Assembly (NCBI GenBank): GCA_001430755.1
Contig: CP013062.1
Span: 750,001-782,000, forward strand
Reading direction: 5' to 3'
DNA from: Candidatus Peribacter riflensis
GTDB taxonomy: Bacteria > Patescibacteriota > Gracilibacteria > Peribacterales > Peribacteraceae
Length of the DNA: 32,000 nt
The notes under the pieces: model-generated
What the model was told of the DNA's origin: nothing
Database searches by the model: none
Seen by the model: only the letters and a program-made list of their open reading frames with translations
Position numbers and translations under genes: made by a program
Part shown: one piece after another, positions 7,228-32,000 of the stretch
How the letters are laid out: every line of letters starts with the position of its first letter
How positions within the stretch are numbered: position 1 is the stretch's first letter

Positions 7228-7328
7228 AACGCGGGGAGTCTACAGAAGAGCCCGGTGAGAGCAAGAAAAAAGGGCTCCTGATTGCCAGGGGCACCATCTG
7301 GCCATAGGGGATGAAAGTAAACCCCTCC

Positions 7329-11422: not shown

Positions 11423-11451
11423 AAAATAGCTCTTTTTTATGTTTTTGTCAA
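11423..11451 (-). promoter_or_regulatory. Sigma70-like promoter TTGACA-N17-TATTTT, 6 nt upstream of ATG 11416
   Basis: The minus strand reads ttgaca aaaacataaaaaagagc tatttt agcatt ATG. Confidence 0.55.
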
Positions 11452-11510
11452 AATTCCAGGACACAATGACAATTCCGCACCAGAGAGGACCGGGTATCAT
11501 GACTCACCAT

Positions 11511-12182
11511 ATGCTCTCCATTGTTTCAACACCCATCGGGAACCTCGGCGACATCACCCTGCGCGCCCTCGCAACGCTGAAGAAATGTGATGCGATTGTC
11601 TGCGAAGACACGCGGGTGACGGGGCAACTGCTGCAATTGCTGGAACTGCCCAAGAAAGAATTGATCAGCTGCCACGGCTACAGCAATCCAAAGAAAGTGG
11701 ATGACATCATACGAATGCTCACGGAAGGTCGGCACCTCGTCCTCGTGAGCGATGCCGGAACCCCCGGCATCTCGGACCCCGGTTACGCCCTCGTTTCACG
11801 CGCCCGCTGCGGGAGGATCCCGATCGAGGTGATTCCCGGACCGGCTGCGTTCCTCGCGGCCTTAAGCGCAAGCGGGCTCCCGGTGAACCGCTTCGTCTAC
11901 CTGGGCTTTCTGCCGCTCAAAAAAGGACGCCAGACCCTGCTCAAGTCATTGAAGGAGGAAGAACGGACCATCGTCTTCTACGAATCCGTGCACCGCATCG
12001 AAAAGACCCTGCGCGAGCTCGCCGAGGCACTGCAAGATCAGCCCGACCGCCCTGTGGTGATCGCACGGGAGCTCACAAAGATGCACGAGGAAATCGTCAC
12101 AACGACCGTTGCCGGGCTTCCTGCAATCGCCCAGTCGATTGTGAAGAAAGGAGAGTTCGCGGTGATCATCGGAGCACAGTAA
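11511..12182 (+). CDS. rsmI: 16S rRNA (cytidine1402-2'-O)-methyltransferase RsmI
   Basis: The sequence is MLSIVSTPIGNLGDITLRALATLKKCDAIVCEDTRVTGQLL...VLVSDAGTPGISDPG. The start is uncertain. ATG 11499 and the tracked 11439 are in frame, and I chose 11511 because a TATCAT box at 11495..11500 precedes it. Confidence 0.88.
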   Translation: MLSIVSTPIGNLGDITLRALATLKKCDAIVCEDTRVTGQLLQLLELPKKELISCHGYSNPKKVDDIIRMLTEGRHLVLVSDAGTPGISDPGYALVSRARCGRIPIEVIPGPAAFLAALSASGLPVNRFVYLGFLPLKKGRQTLLKSLKEEERTIVFYESVHRIEKTLRELAEALQDQPDRPVVIARELTKMHEEIVTTTVAGLPAIAQSIVKKGEFAVIIGAQ

Positions 12183-12230
12183 CCGCAGATATCCCTCATC
12201 AATCATGGACGAATCCCGCAAAAATTCATC

Positions 12231-12385
12231 GTGGCGAAGCGTGGGTCTCGCGGGCCCCGCGCTGCCCGCCCGAACGTACCGTTCGGTACGGGCGGGGAGC
12301 CACTCCTCTAAGGGAAAAAAGAGCCCGTGAGAGAAAAACCGCCCGCCAGAACGACCTTGTCGGGCTGGTAGGTTTGTCTCTCACG
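12231..12385 (+). repeat. Structured intergenic repeat, copy 1 (155 nt)
   Basis: The elements are P1 gtggc/gccac, P2 gcgtggg/cccgcgc, the linker aagggaaaaaagagc and P3 cgtgagagaaaaacc/ggtttgtctctcacg. A 32-nt self-complementary insertion lies at 12265..12296. This copy sits between the convergent gene ends of rsmI and a small membrane gene. Confidence 0.7.
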
Positions 12386-12426
12386 AAATAAAAAATAGGA
12401 GGAAGACACGATGCCTTCCTCCCCGA

Positions 12427-12708
12427 TCAAGAAGATCTGTTTTTCCAGCGTTCCACGAGACACTCGCAGGACCAGAGCAGAAAGAACGTGCCGTAGAAAC
12501 TCGCGAACAGTACGGCAGCATGGCTCCAGTACTGCAGCTGCAGAGCAATGACAACGGTAAAGGTCACCGCAGCCACGAGAGTGCCAAGGGCAATCAGGCA
12601 GCCGTTGAAACAACCTTCTTCCGTGTTGTCCCAAATAGATTTTCGCTGAAACCATTCATAACCGATTCCTGCGAGGAACCCTGCGAAAAACATCGAGAAG
12701 TAACCCAT
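12427..12708 (-). CDS. Small hydrophobic membrane protein (93 aa), function unknown
   Basis: A strong Shine-Dalgarno sequence, aaaggaaGGAGGTGacccATG, precedes the start. There are three hydrophobic segments (FSMFFAGFLAGIG, CLIALGTLVAAVTFTVVIAL, AAVLFASFYGTFFLLW). Confidence 0.6.
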   Translation of the reverse strand: MGYFSMFFAGFLAGIGYEWFQRKSIWDNTEEGCFNGCLIALGTLVAAVTFTVVIALQLQYWSHAAVLFASFYGTFFLLWSCECLVERWKNRSS

Positions 12709-12733
12709 GGGTCACCTCCTTCCTTTTAGCGAC

Positions 12734-12768
12734 AAAAAAATGATCGATATCCTGATCGGATGAATCAT
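12734..12768 (-). terminator. Intrinsic terminator downstream of the M23 peptidase gene
   Basis: The minus strand carries an imperfect hairpin atgattcatcc-gatca-ggatatcgatcat followed by T7. Confidence 0.55.
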
Positions 12769-12818
12769 GATCCCGTTCTCTCTGCAGTACGTCAAAGCAT
12801 TCCCCCACCAATTCCCGC

Positions 12819-14033
12819 TTAGGGGAGCACGAAGAGCGGATCAATATTCGTCCCGTCTTTGATCACCTCGAAGTGGAGGTGGGGACCGGTAGTGGTGGGA
12901 CCCGAGCCGTACGCTCCCACCGCGCCGCCGCTCAACCCCACTGCCTCCCCCTGCTTCAGATCCTGACCACTCGTGACCGTGATCTTCGAGAGGTGGCCGT
13001 AGAGCGTGGCATAGCCCCCGCGATGGCCAACCAGCACGTACGAGTAGCCGCGCGCTCCCCCGTCGCGGGCGAGGAACACGATGCCATCCGCCGCACTGAA
13101 GACCGGCGATCCCTGCCCCACAACGATATCCACTCCGTAGTGCGAAATACCAAAGAGCTCCTGGTAGCCCGCATCGAGGAACCCCGCCGACCGCGTGCCG
13201 TACGCGGGCCAGGCGAACTGCGGCGTGACCGGCATGGCCGATCGGTCGATCGCCCCGGGAGTGAGCAGGCCTTTTTCGAGAAGTTCACGCTCGACGCGGC
13301 TGCGGAGCTTGGCGTCGATGCGCGCGAGCGCCCCCTGCATCTTCAGCACCTGAGCGTGCACCTCTTCCATGTTGGCCTGAATGTCTTTGAGTTGAGATTC
13401 AGTCACGGCAAGCCCGCGCGCGGACCGCTCCAGCTGTGCGACCATGCGCAGTGCTTCGATGCGGAGAGCGTCATGCTGGACCTGCAACACAAGCAACCGG
13501 CCCCGCTGCGCTTCTGCTTCGGCCGTGGCGCGCAGAACGCTCTCGAGCATGCCCCACTGCAGATCTTCCTCCTGCAGAACGCCGAACGAGGCGACCAGCG
13601 CGCGCCGGAAGAACGACCGCCCCCCGACTGCGGATCCCAGAATCGGCTGAGAGCGACGCACGTAGGCGAATGCCTCCACGATGTCTTCAGGACGCATGTC
13701 TGCAGAAGCGTCTTTCTGCGCCAACCATCCGAATCGCTGTTCAAGTACGGCGATGGCACGCTGCACCCCCGCGATCTTCAGCCGCAATGCGCGCTTCTCG
13801 CGCATGAGCGAGGGAACACGCGCTTGCGCCTCACGCAGTTCCGCCTCGTGCAGACGCTTGAGGGCCGGCAGGCTGCGCGTGCGCTGATACTCCGCCGAAG
13901 CCTTGTCGAGCGCGGAACGGAACGCGCGTTCGGCATCGATGCGCTCCTCCGACGTGATGAGCGCAAATGTGAGAAGCGGGACGAGCCCCGCAAGCAGGAC
14001 AGCCACCGTGGCAGCGCGATTCATAATGTGCAT
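12819..14033 (-). CDS. M23-family peptidoglycan metalloendopeptidase with an N-terminal TM/signal segment and coiled coil (EnvC-like architecture)
   Basis: The C-terminal motifs are HYGVDIVVGQGSPVFSAADGIV...GHLSKITVTSGQDLKQGEAVGLSG...TTGPHLHFEV. The tracked start at 14063 is GTG. ATG 14033 lies 10 nt after a TATAAT box (14049..14044). Confidence 0.88.
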   Translation of the reverse strand: MHIMNRAATVAVLLAGLVPLLTFALITSEERIDAERAFRSALDKASAEYQRTRSLPALKRLHEAELREAQARVPSLMREKRALRLKIAGVQRAIAVLEQRFGWLAQKDASADMRPEDIVEAFAYVRRSQPILGSAVGGRSFFRRALVASFGVLQEEDLQWGMLESVLRATAEAEAQRGRLLVLQVQHDALRIEALRMVAQLERSARGLAVTESQLKDIQANMEEVHAQVLKMQGALARIDAKLRSRVERELLEKGLLTPGAIDRSAMPVTPQFAWPAYGTRSAGFLDAGYQELFGISHYGVDIVVGQGSPVFSAADGIVFLARDGGARGYSYVLVGHRGGYATLYGHLSKITVTSGQDLKQGEAVGLSGGAVGAYGSGPTTTGPHLHFEVIKDGTNIDPLFVLP

Positions 14034-14148
14034 TTTCCCTCTTATTATAGCGGAAAAACTCACGTAATGAAATGGACTGTAACCGATCAGTCATCTCGAG
14101 AATATTCATAAAACCATGCCACATATTCGCAGACACAGTAGAAAAACC

Positions 14149-14309
14149 GCGGCGAAGCGCGGGTCTCGCGGGCTCCCGCGCTGGAGCCGCACCTTTGAAG
14201 GGAAAAGAGAGCTCGTGAGAGAAAAACCGGCTTGTCGGCCGTAGCCCGACTCGTCCACCATAGCTTTAGCGACGGTGGATGGGCGAAGGCTGAAGGTTTG
14301 TCTCTCACG
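14149..14309 (+). repeat. Structured intergenic repeat, copy 2 (161 nt)
   Basis: The elements are P1 gcggc/gccgc, P2 gcgcggg/cccgcgc, the linker aagggaaaagagagc, and a P3 identical to copy 1 but with a 66-nt apical insertion. This copy lies between the divergent M23 and ruvA promoters. Confidence 0.7.
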
Positions 14310-16995: not shown

Positions 16996-17071
16996 GGGGC
17001 TGTAGCTCAGTTGGTAGAGCACCTGCTTTGCAAGCAGGGGGTCAGGAGTTCGAATCTCCTCAGCTCCACCA
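16996..17071 (+). tRNA. tRNA-Ala (anticodon UGC), with CCA encoded
   Basis: The manual cloverleaf is ggggctg ta gctc agttggta gagc a cctgc ttTGCaa gcagg gggtc aggag ttcgaat ctcct cagctcc a cca. The G3:U70 identity pair is present. Confidence 0.93.
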
Positions 17072-22769: not shown

Positions 22770-22844
22770 TGGAGGTGCCGGCGAGAATTGCACTCGCGTA
22801 TGGGGGTTTTGCAGACCCCTGCCTTACTACTTGGCTACGGCACC
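22770..22844 (-). tRNA. tRNA-Cys (anticodon GCA), with CCA encoded and atypical T- and D-loops
   Basis: The manual cloverleaf on the minus strand is ggtgccg ta gcc aagtagtaa ggc a ggggt ctGCAaa acccc catac gcgag tgcaatt ctcgc cggcacc t cca. The 7-bp acceptor stem is perfect, and the U73 discriminator expected for Cys is present. Confidence 0.85.
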
Positions 22845-31340: not shown

Positions 31341-31597
31341 TTTCGCTCCCCGGGCTATCGGTCACGCCTATGGGTGACTGAGCCGAATGACATGGGAAGG
31401 CGATGCGATGAGGCGCTCGCGGTTCTCTGCCTTGCTTGGGTGTCTTGTTTATTCTCGCAACCGGACGAGTTCCTCTGGTCTGTTCGCAACAACCGACAAG
31501 CGGAAGGGAACAGGGAGGAGTGGGGGGTAATGTATGTCGCGGATTCACCTCGATTTCCGCGACACAACGTTGCAGAGCAGAGAGGAGGATGAACATA

Positions 31598-31619
31598 GGG
31601 TGAGGGATAGGGCGTAGGG
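31598..31619 (+). repeat. Canonical G-quadruplex-type motif
   Basis: The sequence is GGG-tga-GGG-ata-GGG-cgta-GGG. It contains the exact reverse complement of 16277..16289. Confidence 0.5.
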
Positions 31620-31670
31620 CGAAAAAAGGTTCAAGGTTCCCGTGGGTCCCCGCATGGAGGACTCTCGGGT

Positions 31671-31712
31671 GGAGGATTTACCCTGAGCGAAGTCGAAGGG
31701 TGTGCATCCTCC
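31671..31712 (+). repeat. Second hairpin of the CCTGAGCG...CGAAGG type
   Basis: The outer stem is ggaggat/atcctcc, and the inner part is ccctgagcgaagtcgaaggg. Confidence 0.5.
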
Positions 31713-31838
31713 TCTCTACGGAACCGGTGATGTGAAGGAGCTTTTTTGTGTCTGCCCCGGGGCAGGTAGCGTGTGTGTCTCTGTGTTTCTTTTGAAGGGA
31801 CGAGCCCAGCACCTTTGCCATGCAAGGGTGCGGGGCAT

Positions 31839-31857
31839 GATTTGTTCGAAACAAATC
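31839..31857. promoter_or_regulatory. 19-bp palindrome (possible operator or small hairpin)
   Basis: The sequence gatttgtt-cga-aacaaatc has perfect 8-bp arms. It lies in a low-GC non-coding stretch about 130 bp before a possible gene start at the window edge. Confidence 0.3.
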
Positions 31858-32000
31858 TGGTCATCTTATGACTTATCAAAGTGGTCTTCAAGAAAGTGCA
31901 CTGGCGCGAGGTGGAGTATTGTTTTATGAATACATTTTTTGATCATATACGATGTTGAATCGCCAATTGTGCGGTGGTGCCTCTACAATGGCCACGCCCT

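Follow-up and report, generated by a model that had tools for sequence, protein, structure and literature searches.

Can a short intergenic sequence that recurs three times within one stretch of a bacterial genome tell us what it folds into, and why it is kept? The question is raised by 32,000 nucleotides of Candidatus Peribacter riflensis (GenBank assembly GCA_001430755.1, contig CP013062.1, positions 750,001 to 782,000 of the forward strand), the whole of which we call the window. An initial annotation of these letters had pointed out three same-orientation copies of an element, each consisting of a helix P1 that encloses a hairpin P2, a purine-rich linker, and a longer helix P3. Copies and architecture hold at the positions given (Table 1), all on the + strand and with lengths of 155, 161 and 89 nt. 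The linker, however, appears to be more than purine-rich: covariation across the wider family argues that it is the third strand of a triple helix on P3.

The element is a previously undescribed, Peribacteria-specific family of dispersed, structured sequences of about 90 nt. Direct evidence from comparative sequence for a long major-groove triple helix is almost never obtained; here, four variable levels switch in concert among G·G-C, A·A-U and U·A-U triads (third-strand base first) in more than 100 distinct sequences. Whether it acts as RNA or as single-stranded DNA (ssDNA), the element is abundant and conserved in the streamlined genomes of Peribacteria, is tied precisely to gene ends and to an rRNA intron, and offers a handle on how these little-understood bacteria delimit their transcription units.

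A dispersed family with a conserved fold

Searching one genome per species for AGGGAAANNAGAGCNCGNGAGAG gave 45 loci (cited below by L numbers where needed), five at most per genome and all from Candidatus Peribacteria, Peribacteraceae, Peregrinibacteria or unclassified Patescibacteria metagenome-assembled genomes (MAGs). A metagenome scan, whose pattern left the linker and P3 core free, matched at least 112 stretches on unlabelled contigs. From the matches listed, a covariance model (R1) recovered 55 + 90 = 145 sense copies of 75–161 nt (median 91), on which the per-copy counts given here rest. Viral contigs held no copy by three patterns. The covariance-model search suggested at the outset thus found many copies beyond the three of the window, and the expectation of a dispersed family, similar to repetitive extragenic palindromes (REPs), miniature inverted-repeat transposable elements (MITEs) or small RNAs (sRNAs), is supported by at least 145 copies in many Peribacteria genomes and metagenomes. 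Within the window, the three copies are the only matches to a 23-nt core pattern allowed at most three mismatches (shuffle expectation 0.01), and two covariance models with filters off found no fourth. The element was also rightly said to match no named RNA class: the only Rfam 15 hits at gathering threshold in the window are two tRNAs, its permissive mode (E<=10) over the three copies gave noise far below gathering scores, and no description was found in Rfam or the searchable literature.

RNAfold recovers the described helices in the three copies (z = -4.2 to -5.3 on the + strand) and, together with reading of the sequence, gives P1 as GYGGC/GCCRC and P3 as 15 bp, in agreement with the initial annotation. 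Its two compensatory changes are real (U-A/C-G at position 2 of P1, A-U/G-C at position 9 of P3), P2 of copy 3 is indeed rebuilt from different sequence, and the hairpin insertions stand as placed, 32 nt after P2 in copy 1 and 30, 66 and 3 nt in the P3 apical loops of copies 1, 2 and 3. Two details change. P3 has a C.A mismatch at position 3 of copy 3. The motif described as a GAAG bulge facing CUGGA is present, but its last G pairs with the C, and this pair covaries to C-G in L003, L095:6106 and L044:7130. What is left is a nearly invariant 5'-GAA/3'-UGGA internal loop.

Is this fold under selection? Three window sequences alone carry no statistical weight, and covariation was therefore judged on the wider family. 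In 20 clean copies, 96.8% of cells are paired and 12 pairs have changed on both sides, a signal above background, since none of 500 shuffles scored as high; with the partners slid, pairing is about 45%. The 90 independent metagenome copies give 95.3% paired cells, 20 of 27 pairs changed on both sides, and a covariation score of 0.511 against a control of 0.177. The earlier suggestion of a selected single-strand fold, be it RNA or ssDNA, thereby gains support from very strong covariation in the wider family.

Read from the aligned sequences, the fold has two domains. The first comprises P1 (5 bp), the conserved 5'-GAA/3'-UGGA loop of tandem G.A type with one bulged G, and the variable hairpin P2. 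In the second, P3 forms a hairpin of 15 bp whose 5' arm is all purine and whose 3' arm is all pyrimidine, capped by a C(GNA)G triloop; G-N-A occupies 97 of 105 three-nt closing loops, and G-N-N-A 26 of 28 four-nt loops. Conservation is high at the unpaired positions. Extra hairpins occupy the apex of P2, the position after P2, or the apex of P3, three sites that are fixed across copies, and some of these modules recur between copies. A variant in a MAG labelled Gracilibacteria (L041:2019-2093) has linker, P3 and a P2-like hairpin with a GGGUCUCGCGGGUUCCC loop and lacks both P1 and the GAA/UGGA loop; the first domain may therefore be dispensable in some lineages.

Several familiar motifs were considered for these parts and set aside. 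The 5'-GAA/3'-UGGA loop allows tandem G.A pairs as in a canonical kink-turn, but its bulge has only one nucleotide, not three. The succession of P1 and ACC resembles a tRNA-like minihelix and lacks its defining features. A pseudoknot between linker AGAGCYC and P2 GGGCUCU is visible in the three window copies; by reading, members with GGAUGG-type linkers have no matching P2. Finally, GUG-AGA-GGA-AAA-CCG-UAG could be read as a mini-ORF for which the linker provides AAGGAG as Shine-Dalgarno sequence; it needs a GUA loop for its stop codon, which is absent where the loop is GCA.

A candidate triple helix, its strand and its molecule

Read in reverse, the linker equals the purine arm of P3, and this mirror relation is kept among variants such as GGAGAG/GAGAGG, GGAUGG/GGAAGG, GGGAUU/AAAGGG, GGGGUG/GAGGGG, GGGUGG/GGAGGG and GUGGG/GGGAG. 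Over 101 distinct combinations, the mutual information between linker and purine arm forms a clean anti-diagonal (0.81, 0.89, 0.53 and 0.48), while no other cell exceeds 0.33. Each variable level alternates among the three triads, with G·G.U in addition; level 20, for example, counts 43 G·G.U, 28 U·A-U and 26 G·G-C. The rule that G stands opposite G, and A or U opposite A, holds for 95.4% of cells over nine levels, compared with 78.5 +/- 0.9% for shuffled columns and a maximum of 81.4% in 2000 shuffles; 41 haplotypes were seen. The linker also covaries with the Watson-Crick partner of the purine arm, and the mirror register beats every other full-length register. A direct-repeat register, in which the linker would pair with the 3' arm of P3 as an alternative hairpin, is rejected, as the mutual information lies on the anti-diagonal and not on the diagonal. 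To our knowledge, no mutational mechanism yields mirror symmetry, and we therefore infer that a triple helix with some nine triples has been selected.

This code is exactly that of the antiparallel reverse-Hoogsteen purine motif, whose triads are G·G-C, A·A-T and T·A-T (PMC4666352, PMC7583470), and the order of blocks is that of the class I intrastrand triplex, where a single strand carries the reverse-Hoogsteen, purine and pyrimidine blocks in 5' to 3' order with a stem of 6–15 (PMC4666352). The element has the block order and triads of a class I potential intrastrand triplex (PIT/ITxF), with nine levels. It departs from the ITxF loop definition of 1–6 nt: the first connector has 5 nt, 3 of them base-paired, and the second 'loop' has at least 10 nt, made up of 3 extra bp and the triloop, or of inserts of up to 76 nt. 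On comparative grounds, the linker is thus predicted to occupy the major groove of P3 and to run antiparallel to its purine arm, in about nine consecutive reverse-Hoogsteen triples of a class I intrastrand purine-motif triplex.

Which strand folds? On the + strand, G.U outnumbers A.C by 100:16 in P3, or 37:15 without the one pair that is mostly G.U, and by 15:2 in P2. Only the purine motif of the + strand admits U·A-U triads; on the complement they become A interruptions in a pyrimidine-motif helix. The G.U excess and the U·A-U triples identify the + strand as the selected fold. A parallel pyrimidine-motif triplex of the minus strand was rejected, since T·A-T triads and G.T wobbles are illegal there.

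Copies are also found inside an rRNA gene. At 12 loci or more, a group I intron interrupts the 23S rRNA gene between GUCGGGU and AAGUUCCGACC, at about E. coli position 1951. This intron is free of open reading frames (ORFs) and belongs to Rfam RF00028 (L044:5142-5870; also L021, L025, L031, L039, L058/L098, L073, L076, L079, L095, L112 and L119). The element lies in it in sense orientation, 6–10 nt before the 3' splice site; some introns (L044, L058/L098) have a second copy in the P8 loop, where relatives have a plain P8 hairpin. An intron at the same 23S site in L005 is without the 3'-terminal copy. The orthologous 3'-end copies display at least five different triplex haplotypes that obey the code. 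Intron copies are spliced out and may therefore be tolerated, or co-opted as peripheral domains. In intron copies only, the 5' flank and the linker can form a Watson-Crick helix of 8–11 bp whose sequence differs per lineage; a general pairing of flank and linker was rejected, as it is true of only four to five intron copies.

Does the fold live in RNA or in DNA? Judged from the sequences, we lean slightly to RNA. The triple covariation occurs in situ inside the intron, whose only known life is as RNA; the GA loop is conserved; and the window copies lie where + sense transcription is expected, in two 3' untranslated regions (UTRs) and in the leader of ruvA. Transfer RNA shows that isolated reverse-Hoogsteen purine triples are possible. 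We tentatively propose that the + strand RNA may form a nine-level antiparallel R·R-Y triple helix, kept by three-way covariation, in hundreds of transcripts including the self-splicing 23S rRNA intron. We know of no natural RNA with a long antiparallel purine-motif triple helix. If true, this would be the first long one of this motif in nature and would define, in candidate-phyla-radiation bacteria, a new structured-RNA class marking the ends of genes; it would overturn the view that purine-motif triplexes exclude RNA, and provide a new building block for RNA architecture and design.

Several observations weigh against this proposal. P3 is closed by C(GNA)G and pyrimidine triloops, and GNA triloops resemble stable DNA mini-hairpins. 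The Watson-Crick pairing of linker and 5' flank in those four to five intron copies suggests that an RNA linker is not always in the triplex. On the P1 side, a co-directional gene is missing in about half of the copies, and the upstream sequences show no conserved -35/-10 pair, so that + strand transcription is not assured everywhere. Last, purine-motif triplexes are reported, from oligonucleotide studies, not to form with RNA strands (Semerad and Maher 1994, cited in PMC4666352; PMC7583470).

An element of ssDNA is an alternative that is possible but rather doubtful. Here, fold and triplex would form in the + strand as ssDNA, either as a structure recognized by an HUH-type or other transposase or recombinase acting in trans, which would make the element a non-autonomous mobile one of REP/PATE type, or as a PIT repeat like BoxC/TM_ECO of E. 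coli; placement at gene ends would then reflect insertion preference and purifying selection without a host function. The code matches that of DNA class I intrastrand triplexes, and dispersed bacterial triplex repeats, BoxC/TM_ECO, are known (PMC4666352); the reported exclusion of RNA from the purine motif and the GNA preference of the P3 loops agree with it as well. If the alternative held, the family would provide the first covariation evidence for selection on an intrastrand DNA triplex. Further evidence on it concerns strand bias and mobility, to which we return below.

Gene ends, function and mobility

The contexts of the element had been described as unrelated. Functionally the neighbors are, but in position they follow a rule: the P3 end systematically meets the 3' end of a convergent gene, a terminator, a tRNA or a 5S gene. 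A gene was called on the P3 side of 120 copies, and in 73 of them it runs convergently. In 45 of 145 copies the convergent gene has its stop codon -5 to +10 nt from the final base of P3, fifteen of them at +2 and eleven using the TGA inside CGTGA; no comparable stop peak was seen on the other side or in the other orientation among the 145 copies. A canonical terminator of the convergent unit adjoins P3 in 16 of 139 copies. Elsewhere P3 meets head-on the 3' ends of tRNAs (L013, L036, L037, L045) or the 5S end of an rRNA operon (L005, L025, L044).

The window copies illustrate this (Table 1). Copy 1 starts 48 nt past the stop of a + strand TP_methylase-family gene (11439-12182), and its P3 faces a convergent operon encoding a 93-aa protein and an M23 peptidase. 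Copy 3 starts 77 nt past the stop of a + strand gene for a 558-aa zinc-finger protein. Copy 2 is the exception: it occupies the divergent interval between ruvA and the M23 peptidase gene (- strand), with the ruvA start (14333) 23 nt past P3. The triplex code is obeyed at 8/9, 9/9 and 8/9 levels in copies 1, 2 and 3. A degenerate fragment had also been suspected at 7249-7273. It is not significant by model, but the orthologous site in a related genome holds a full copy in matching orientation (L008:5310-5412), adjoining the orthologous 890-aa convergent gene, and by this synteny the fragment is a probable relic. The window has only two tRNAs, tRNA-Ala at 16996-17071 (+) and tRNA-Cys at 22770-22844 (-).

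Table 1. Copies of the element, their parts and adjoining features in the window
Feature	Position	Strand	Details
Probable decayed relic, agagcccggtgagagcaagaaaaaa	7249-7273	+	covariance models 7-8 bits, E 1.6-2.5, not significant
Copy 1, A-rich leader gcaaaaattcatc	12218-12230	+	counterparts: copy 2 14138-14148, copy 3 31191-31205
Copy 1, whole element	12231-12385	+	155 nt; covariance models 46-58 bits
Copy 1, P1-P2 domain	12231-12303	+	P1 12231-12235 with 12299-12303; from fold and sequence reading
Copy 1, internal loop and P2		+	GAA 12236-12238; P2 12239-12245 with 12256-12262; GGA 12296-12298
Copy 1, inserted hairpin after P2	12264-12295	+	32 nt; site also used in L031, L011, L017
Copy 1, predicted third strand AAAAAAGAG	12315-12323	+	part of purine linker AGGGAAAAAAGAG, 12311-12323; mirrors purine arm 12329-12337
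Copy 1, P3	12326-12385	+	5' arm 12326-12340; 30-nt apical insert 12341-12370; 3' arm 12371-12385
Intrinsic terminator of convergent 93-aa gene	12397-12423	-	U-tract 12386-12396 stops exactly at copy 1 P3 end
Copy 2, whole element	14149-14309	+	161 nt; covariance models 48-63 bits
Copy 2, P1-P2 domain	14149-14190	+	P1 14149-14153 with 14186-14190; P2 14157-14163 with 14175-14181
Copy 2, internal loop		+	GAA 14154-14156; UGGA 14182-14185
Copy 2, predicted third strand	14203-14211	+	in linker AGGGAAAAGAGAG, 14199-14211; mirrors purine arm 14217-14225, which pairs with 14298-14306
Copy 2, P3	14214-14309	+	5' arm 14214-14228; 66-nt apical insert 14229-14294; 3' arm 14295-14309
Copy 3, minimal element	31206-31294	+	89 nt; covariance models 101-108 bits
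Copy 3, P1-P2 domain	31206-31239	+	P1 31206-31210 with 31235-31239; P2 31214-31220 with 31224-31230
Copy 3, internal loop		+	GAA 31211-31213; UGGA 31231-31234
Copy 3, predicted third strand	31251-31259	+	in linker AGGGAAAGGAGAG, 31247-31259; mirrors purine arm 31265-31273, which pairs with 31283-31291
Copy 3, P3	31262-31294	+	5' arm 31262-31276; GCA triloop 31277-31279; 3' arm 31280-31294
Bidirectional terminator hairpin	31300-31334	both	5 nt past copy 3; kept at orthologous loci L017, L060, L137

Some of the inserted hairpins can be followed between genomes. A relative of the GC-rich hairpin GCCCGCCCGAACGUACCGUUCGGUACGGGCGG, inserted after P2 in copy 1, occupies the matching site of intron copy L031:586-710; L011 and L017 share a different insert there, GCCGMAGGUCCCCGGAGG. 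The P3 insert of copy 2 contains a module GUCGGCCGUAGCCC...GGGCGAAGGCUGAAGG common to L044 and L017. Another module, CCCUGAGC..GUCGAAGGG, lies outside the copies at window position 31676-31700 (ccctgagcgaagtcgaaggg); in other genomes it recurs as an insert of the element, in P2 of L016:3181-3292 and in P3 of L039, and L137 has an extra tandem copy. It seems to be a further, smaller family of hairpins that can be inserted. The surrounding 620 nt or so (window 31340-31960) have no convincing ORF and no Rfam match at E<=1, and their first 260 nt or so are strongly conserved relative to L137, L060 and L017, above typical flanks. This region may be a candidate undescribed minus-strand non-coding RNA that ends at the bidirectional terminator 31300-31334.

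What could such a position be good for? A possible answer, which we advance with reserve, is that the element is a REP-type module of gene ends in which a triplex-clamped P3 serves as polar barrier or protected 3' end. The element is set head-on against the 3' end of the neighboring convergent unit. When transcribed in the + direction, the clamped P3 hairpin would form at the border of this neighbor, in the nascent RNA (for which we have a slight preference) or in the displaced non-template DNA strand. There it would act as a polar barrier and leave an exonuclease-resistant 3' end, so that antisense transcripts would be kept out of the neighbor. Read in the opposite direction, the neighbor would receive a hairpin just past its stop codon, followed by a second GC-rich hairpin and a U-tract, which would serve it as terminator and 3'-UTR stabilizer in the manner of REP elements. 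Four facts speak against this function: a barrier in the + direction fits poorly with the sense copies that lie within the 23S rRNA gene and with copy 2 in the ruvA leader, no U-tract follows P3 on the + strand, and many loci have no promoter.

Could the minus strand alone account for the placement? In this unlikely alternative, the element would be a terminator and 3'-UTR cassette of the convergent gene, reading as stop codon, P3' hairpin, CU-rich tract, P2'/P1' hairpin and U-tract, and the CU-rich tract might form a parallel pyrimidine-motif triplex. It would explain why P3 is adjoined by stop codons and the 3' ends of tRNA and 5S genes, and the stop-adjacent genes have no other terminator-like site. 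It would also explain the A-rich leader. A is enriched at positions -9 to -3 before P1 (48 of 55 copies have A at -7), and at least 5 A in the preceding 8 nt are found in 80% of intergenic but 31% of intron copies; on the other strand this tract is the U-tract past the P1'/P2' hairpin. Such a terminator would have a 3x4 internal loop in its stem, however, and it is the + strand that holds the selected fold: one P3 pair would, in its most frequent state, be an A.C mismatch when read on the minus strand, on top of the + strand excess of G.U over A.C, and 39 unique U·A-U triples become illegal A interruptions of a pyrimidine motif. Moreover, the 16 copies beyond a canonical terminator would hardly be transcribed in this direction, copy 2 has no upstream gene on the minus strand, and intron copies are transcribed in + sense only.

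The A-rich box might alternatively hold promoters of a trans-acting sRNA family, of which some members, as copy 3, have their own terminator. Lying between two terminators, copy 3 could stand alone as a unit of about 130 nt; the folding strand is the + strand, and the conservation of unpaired nucleotides would suit such a role. The box ends 2–3 nt before P1, too close for a -10, and no conserved -35 was seen; a + strand terminator follows P3 in only 7 of 139 copies, 6 of them bidirectional; and copies occur inside the intron and in 5' and 3' UTRs as well. We consider an sRNA family quite improbable. A gene-specific cis-regulator, that is a riboswitch or protein-binding leader, is hardly tenable at all. 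Copy 2 lies 23 nt upstream of ruvA, and several copies stand upstream of a gene similar to methionyl-tRNA synthetase (MetRS) with duplicated 5' end, yet neighbor genes are functionally unrelated and most copies are antisense to and downstream of them. These context statistics effectively refute the idea, as the initial annotation had argued for a riboswitch.

The ssDNA alternative meets its own evidence in strand bias and mobility. Flanking GC skew is negative on the strand of the element in 77 of 108 loci (p ~1e-5), which places the folding strand on the C-rich strand; in the window, + strand GC skew is negative nearly throughout 1-32000 (-0.03 to -0.10), and this strand holds the three copies. 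A simple replication-strand rule is rejected: opposite orientations occur within 2 kb of one rRNA operon (L044), and the bias is confounded with gene orientation. Mobility is suggested by subfamilies of P1 and triplex that recur across unrelated loci, by hairpin modules nested at fixed sites, by degraded forms (a truncated half-copy in L017, an internally deleted one in L031 and the relic at window 7249) and by presence/absence polymorphism at the intron P8 site and between L040 and its close relative L043. The L031 form (1945-1990, past the 5S gene) retains only P1 and the 5' part of P2, an internal deletion derivative of what in L044 and L025 is a full antisense copy.

At one locus (L040:2700-2990, L016:3100-3400, L045:2700-2960) the element lies between duplications of about 60 nt of the MetRS-like gene start (M..QYITTAIDYPNA.PH.GH), on the opposite strand, and an upstream ORF thereby reads through the antisense element. 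L043 has neither duplication nor element. This duplication is of the gene start and is restricted to that locus.

No machinery of transposition is evident. A scan limited to 2.5 kb on either side of the 145 copies, not whole genomes, found no recurring transposase-like ORF; ORF clusters there are housekeeping families, for example aminoacyl-tRNA synthetases, and spurious rRNA ORFs. The ends GYSSC... and ...YCACG are unrelated, hence not terminal inverted repeats, and filled and empty P8 sites, the only site pairs qualifying, have no target-site duplication; the absence from viral contigs likewise argues against a mobile ssDNA element. Copies persist at orthologous sites across species and stay distinct within one genome. 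Between the after-5S orthologs L044:7130 and L025:2906, three triplex levels change in concert; the orthologs L022/L024 have compensatory changes in P2 with identical linker and P3, in flanks of 82% identity. Code-obeying changes in place and distinct copies per genome are not expected of decaying selfish insertions.

Comparison with known systems

Bidirectional intrinsic terminators likewise lie between convergent genes, and the minus strand of the element offers a GC-rich hairpin followed by a U-rich tract. Unlike them, it has no + strand U-tract past P3, its conserved loops and third strand would be superfluous, and its sequence is conserved across loci and species. With MITEs, Correia/NEMIS, ERIC, RUP and Rickettsia palindromic elements it shares being short, non-coding and multi-copy, with RNA folds, subfamilies, and permissive sites that include other elements; the terminal inverted repeats and target-site duplications of MITEs were not seen. 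Integron attC sites, defined by R''/L''-L'/R' boxes, cassette arrays and a neighboring intI, are no match: the element forms no arrays, and its neighbors are housekeeping, rRNA and tRNA genes in conserved synteny.

A working analogy for the + strand RNA model is the ENE of PAN and MALAT1, a major-groove triple helix associated with a hairpin at the 3' end of a transcript, which could block 3'-to-5' decay. In the ENE, a U-rich internal loop contacts an A-rich tail through parallel U·A-U (and C+·G-C) triples (PMC7583470). The third strand proposed here is instead purine-rich, antiparallel and 5' of the hairpin, and the element is thus no ENE.

Closer are the REP/BIME sequences of Enterobacteria and Pseudomonas, which are also multi-copy and intergenic, with hairpins at gene ends often a few nt from stop codons; in E. 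coli, about half of the REPs are near enough to stall ribosomes (PMC12306157). Both are kept at orthologous sites and are plausibly domesticated as 3'-end or terminator modules. A REP is a single imperfect palindrome of 20–40 nt with a GTAG/CGTC head and a link to the RAYT (TnpA-REP) transposase. By comparison, the element is a composite of 75–161 nt with three helices, a GA internal loop, a putative triple-helix strand and a strong orientation rule, it has no GTAG/CGTC head, and no RAYT was seen among the ORFs within 2.5 kb of the 145 copies.

The triplex itself finds its nearest relatives in the BoxC/TM_ECO/PIT repeats (Hoyne et al. 2000; Holder et al. 2015, PMC4666352), whose function has been in question for 25 years. 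They too are dispersed and intergenic, with three consecutive blocks that give a purine-motif intrastrand triplex and no associated mobile genes. TM_ECO is of class II (Y-R-RH, with RH the reverse-Hoogsteen block), G/C-rich, nearly invariant, and without orientation or distance bias to genes (PMC4666352). The element has class I order (RH-R-Y), mixes G, A and U, embeds the triplex within a larger fold and has a fixed position at convergent gene ends; the BoxC/TM_ECO consensus CCCTCNCCC-N3-6-GGGNGAGGG-N3-GGGNGAGGG differs from it in block order and sequence. Above all, its triplex is backed by three-way covariation among dissimilar sequences, not by sequence identity. As a kind, the element combines features of REPs with those of intrastrand-triplex repeats, and the covariation-supported triple helix is its unusual part.

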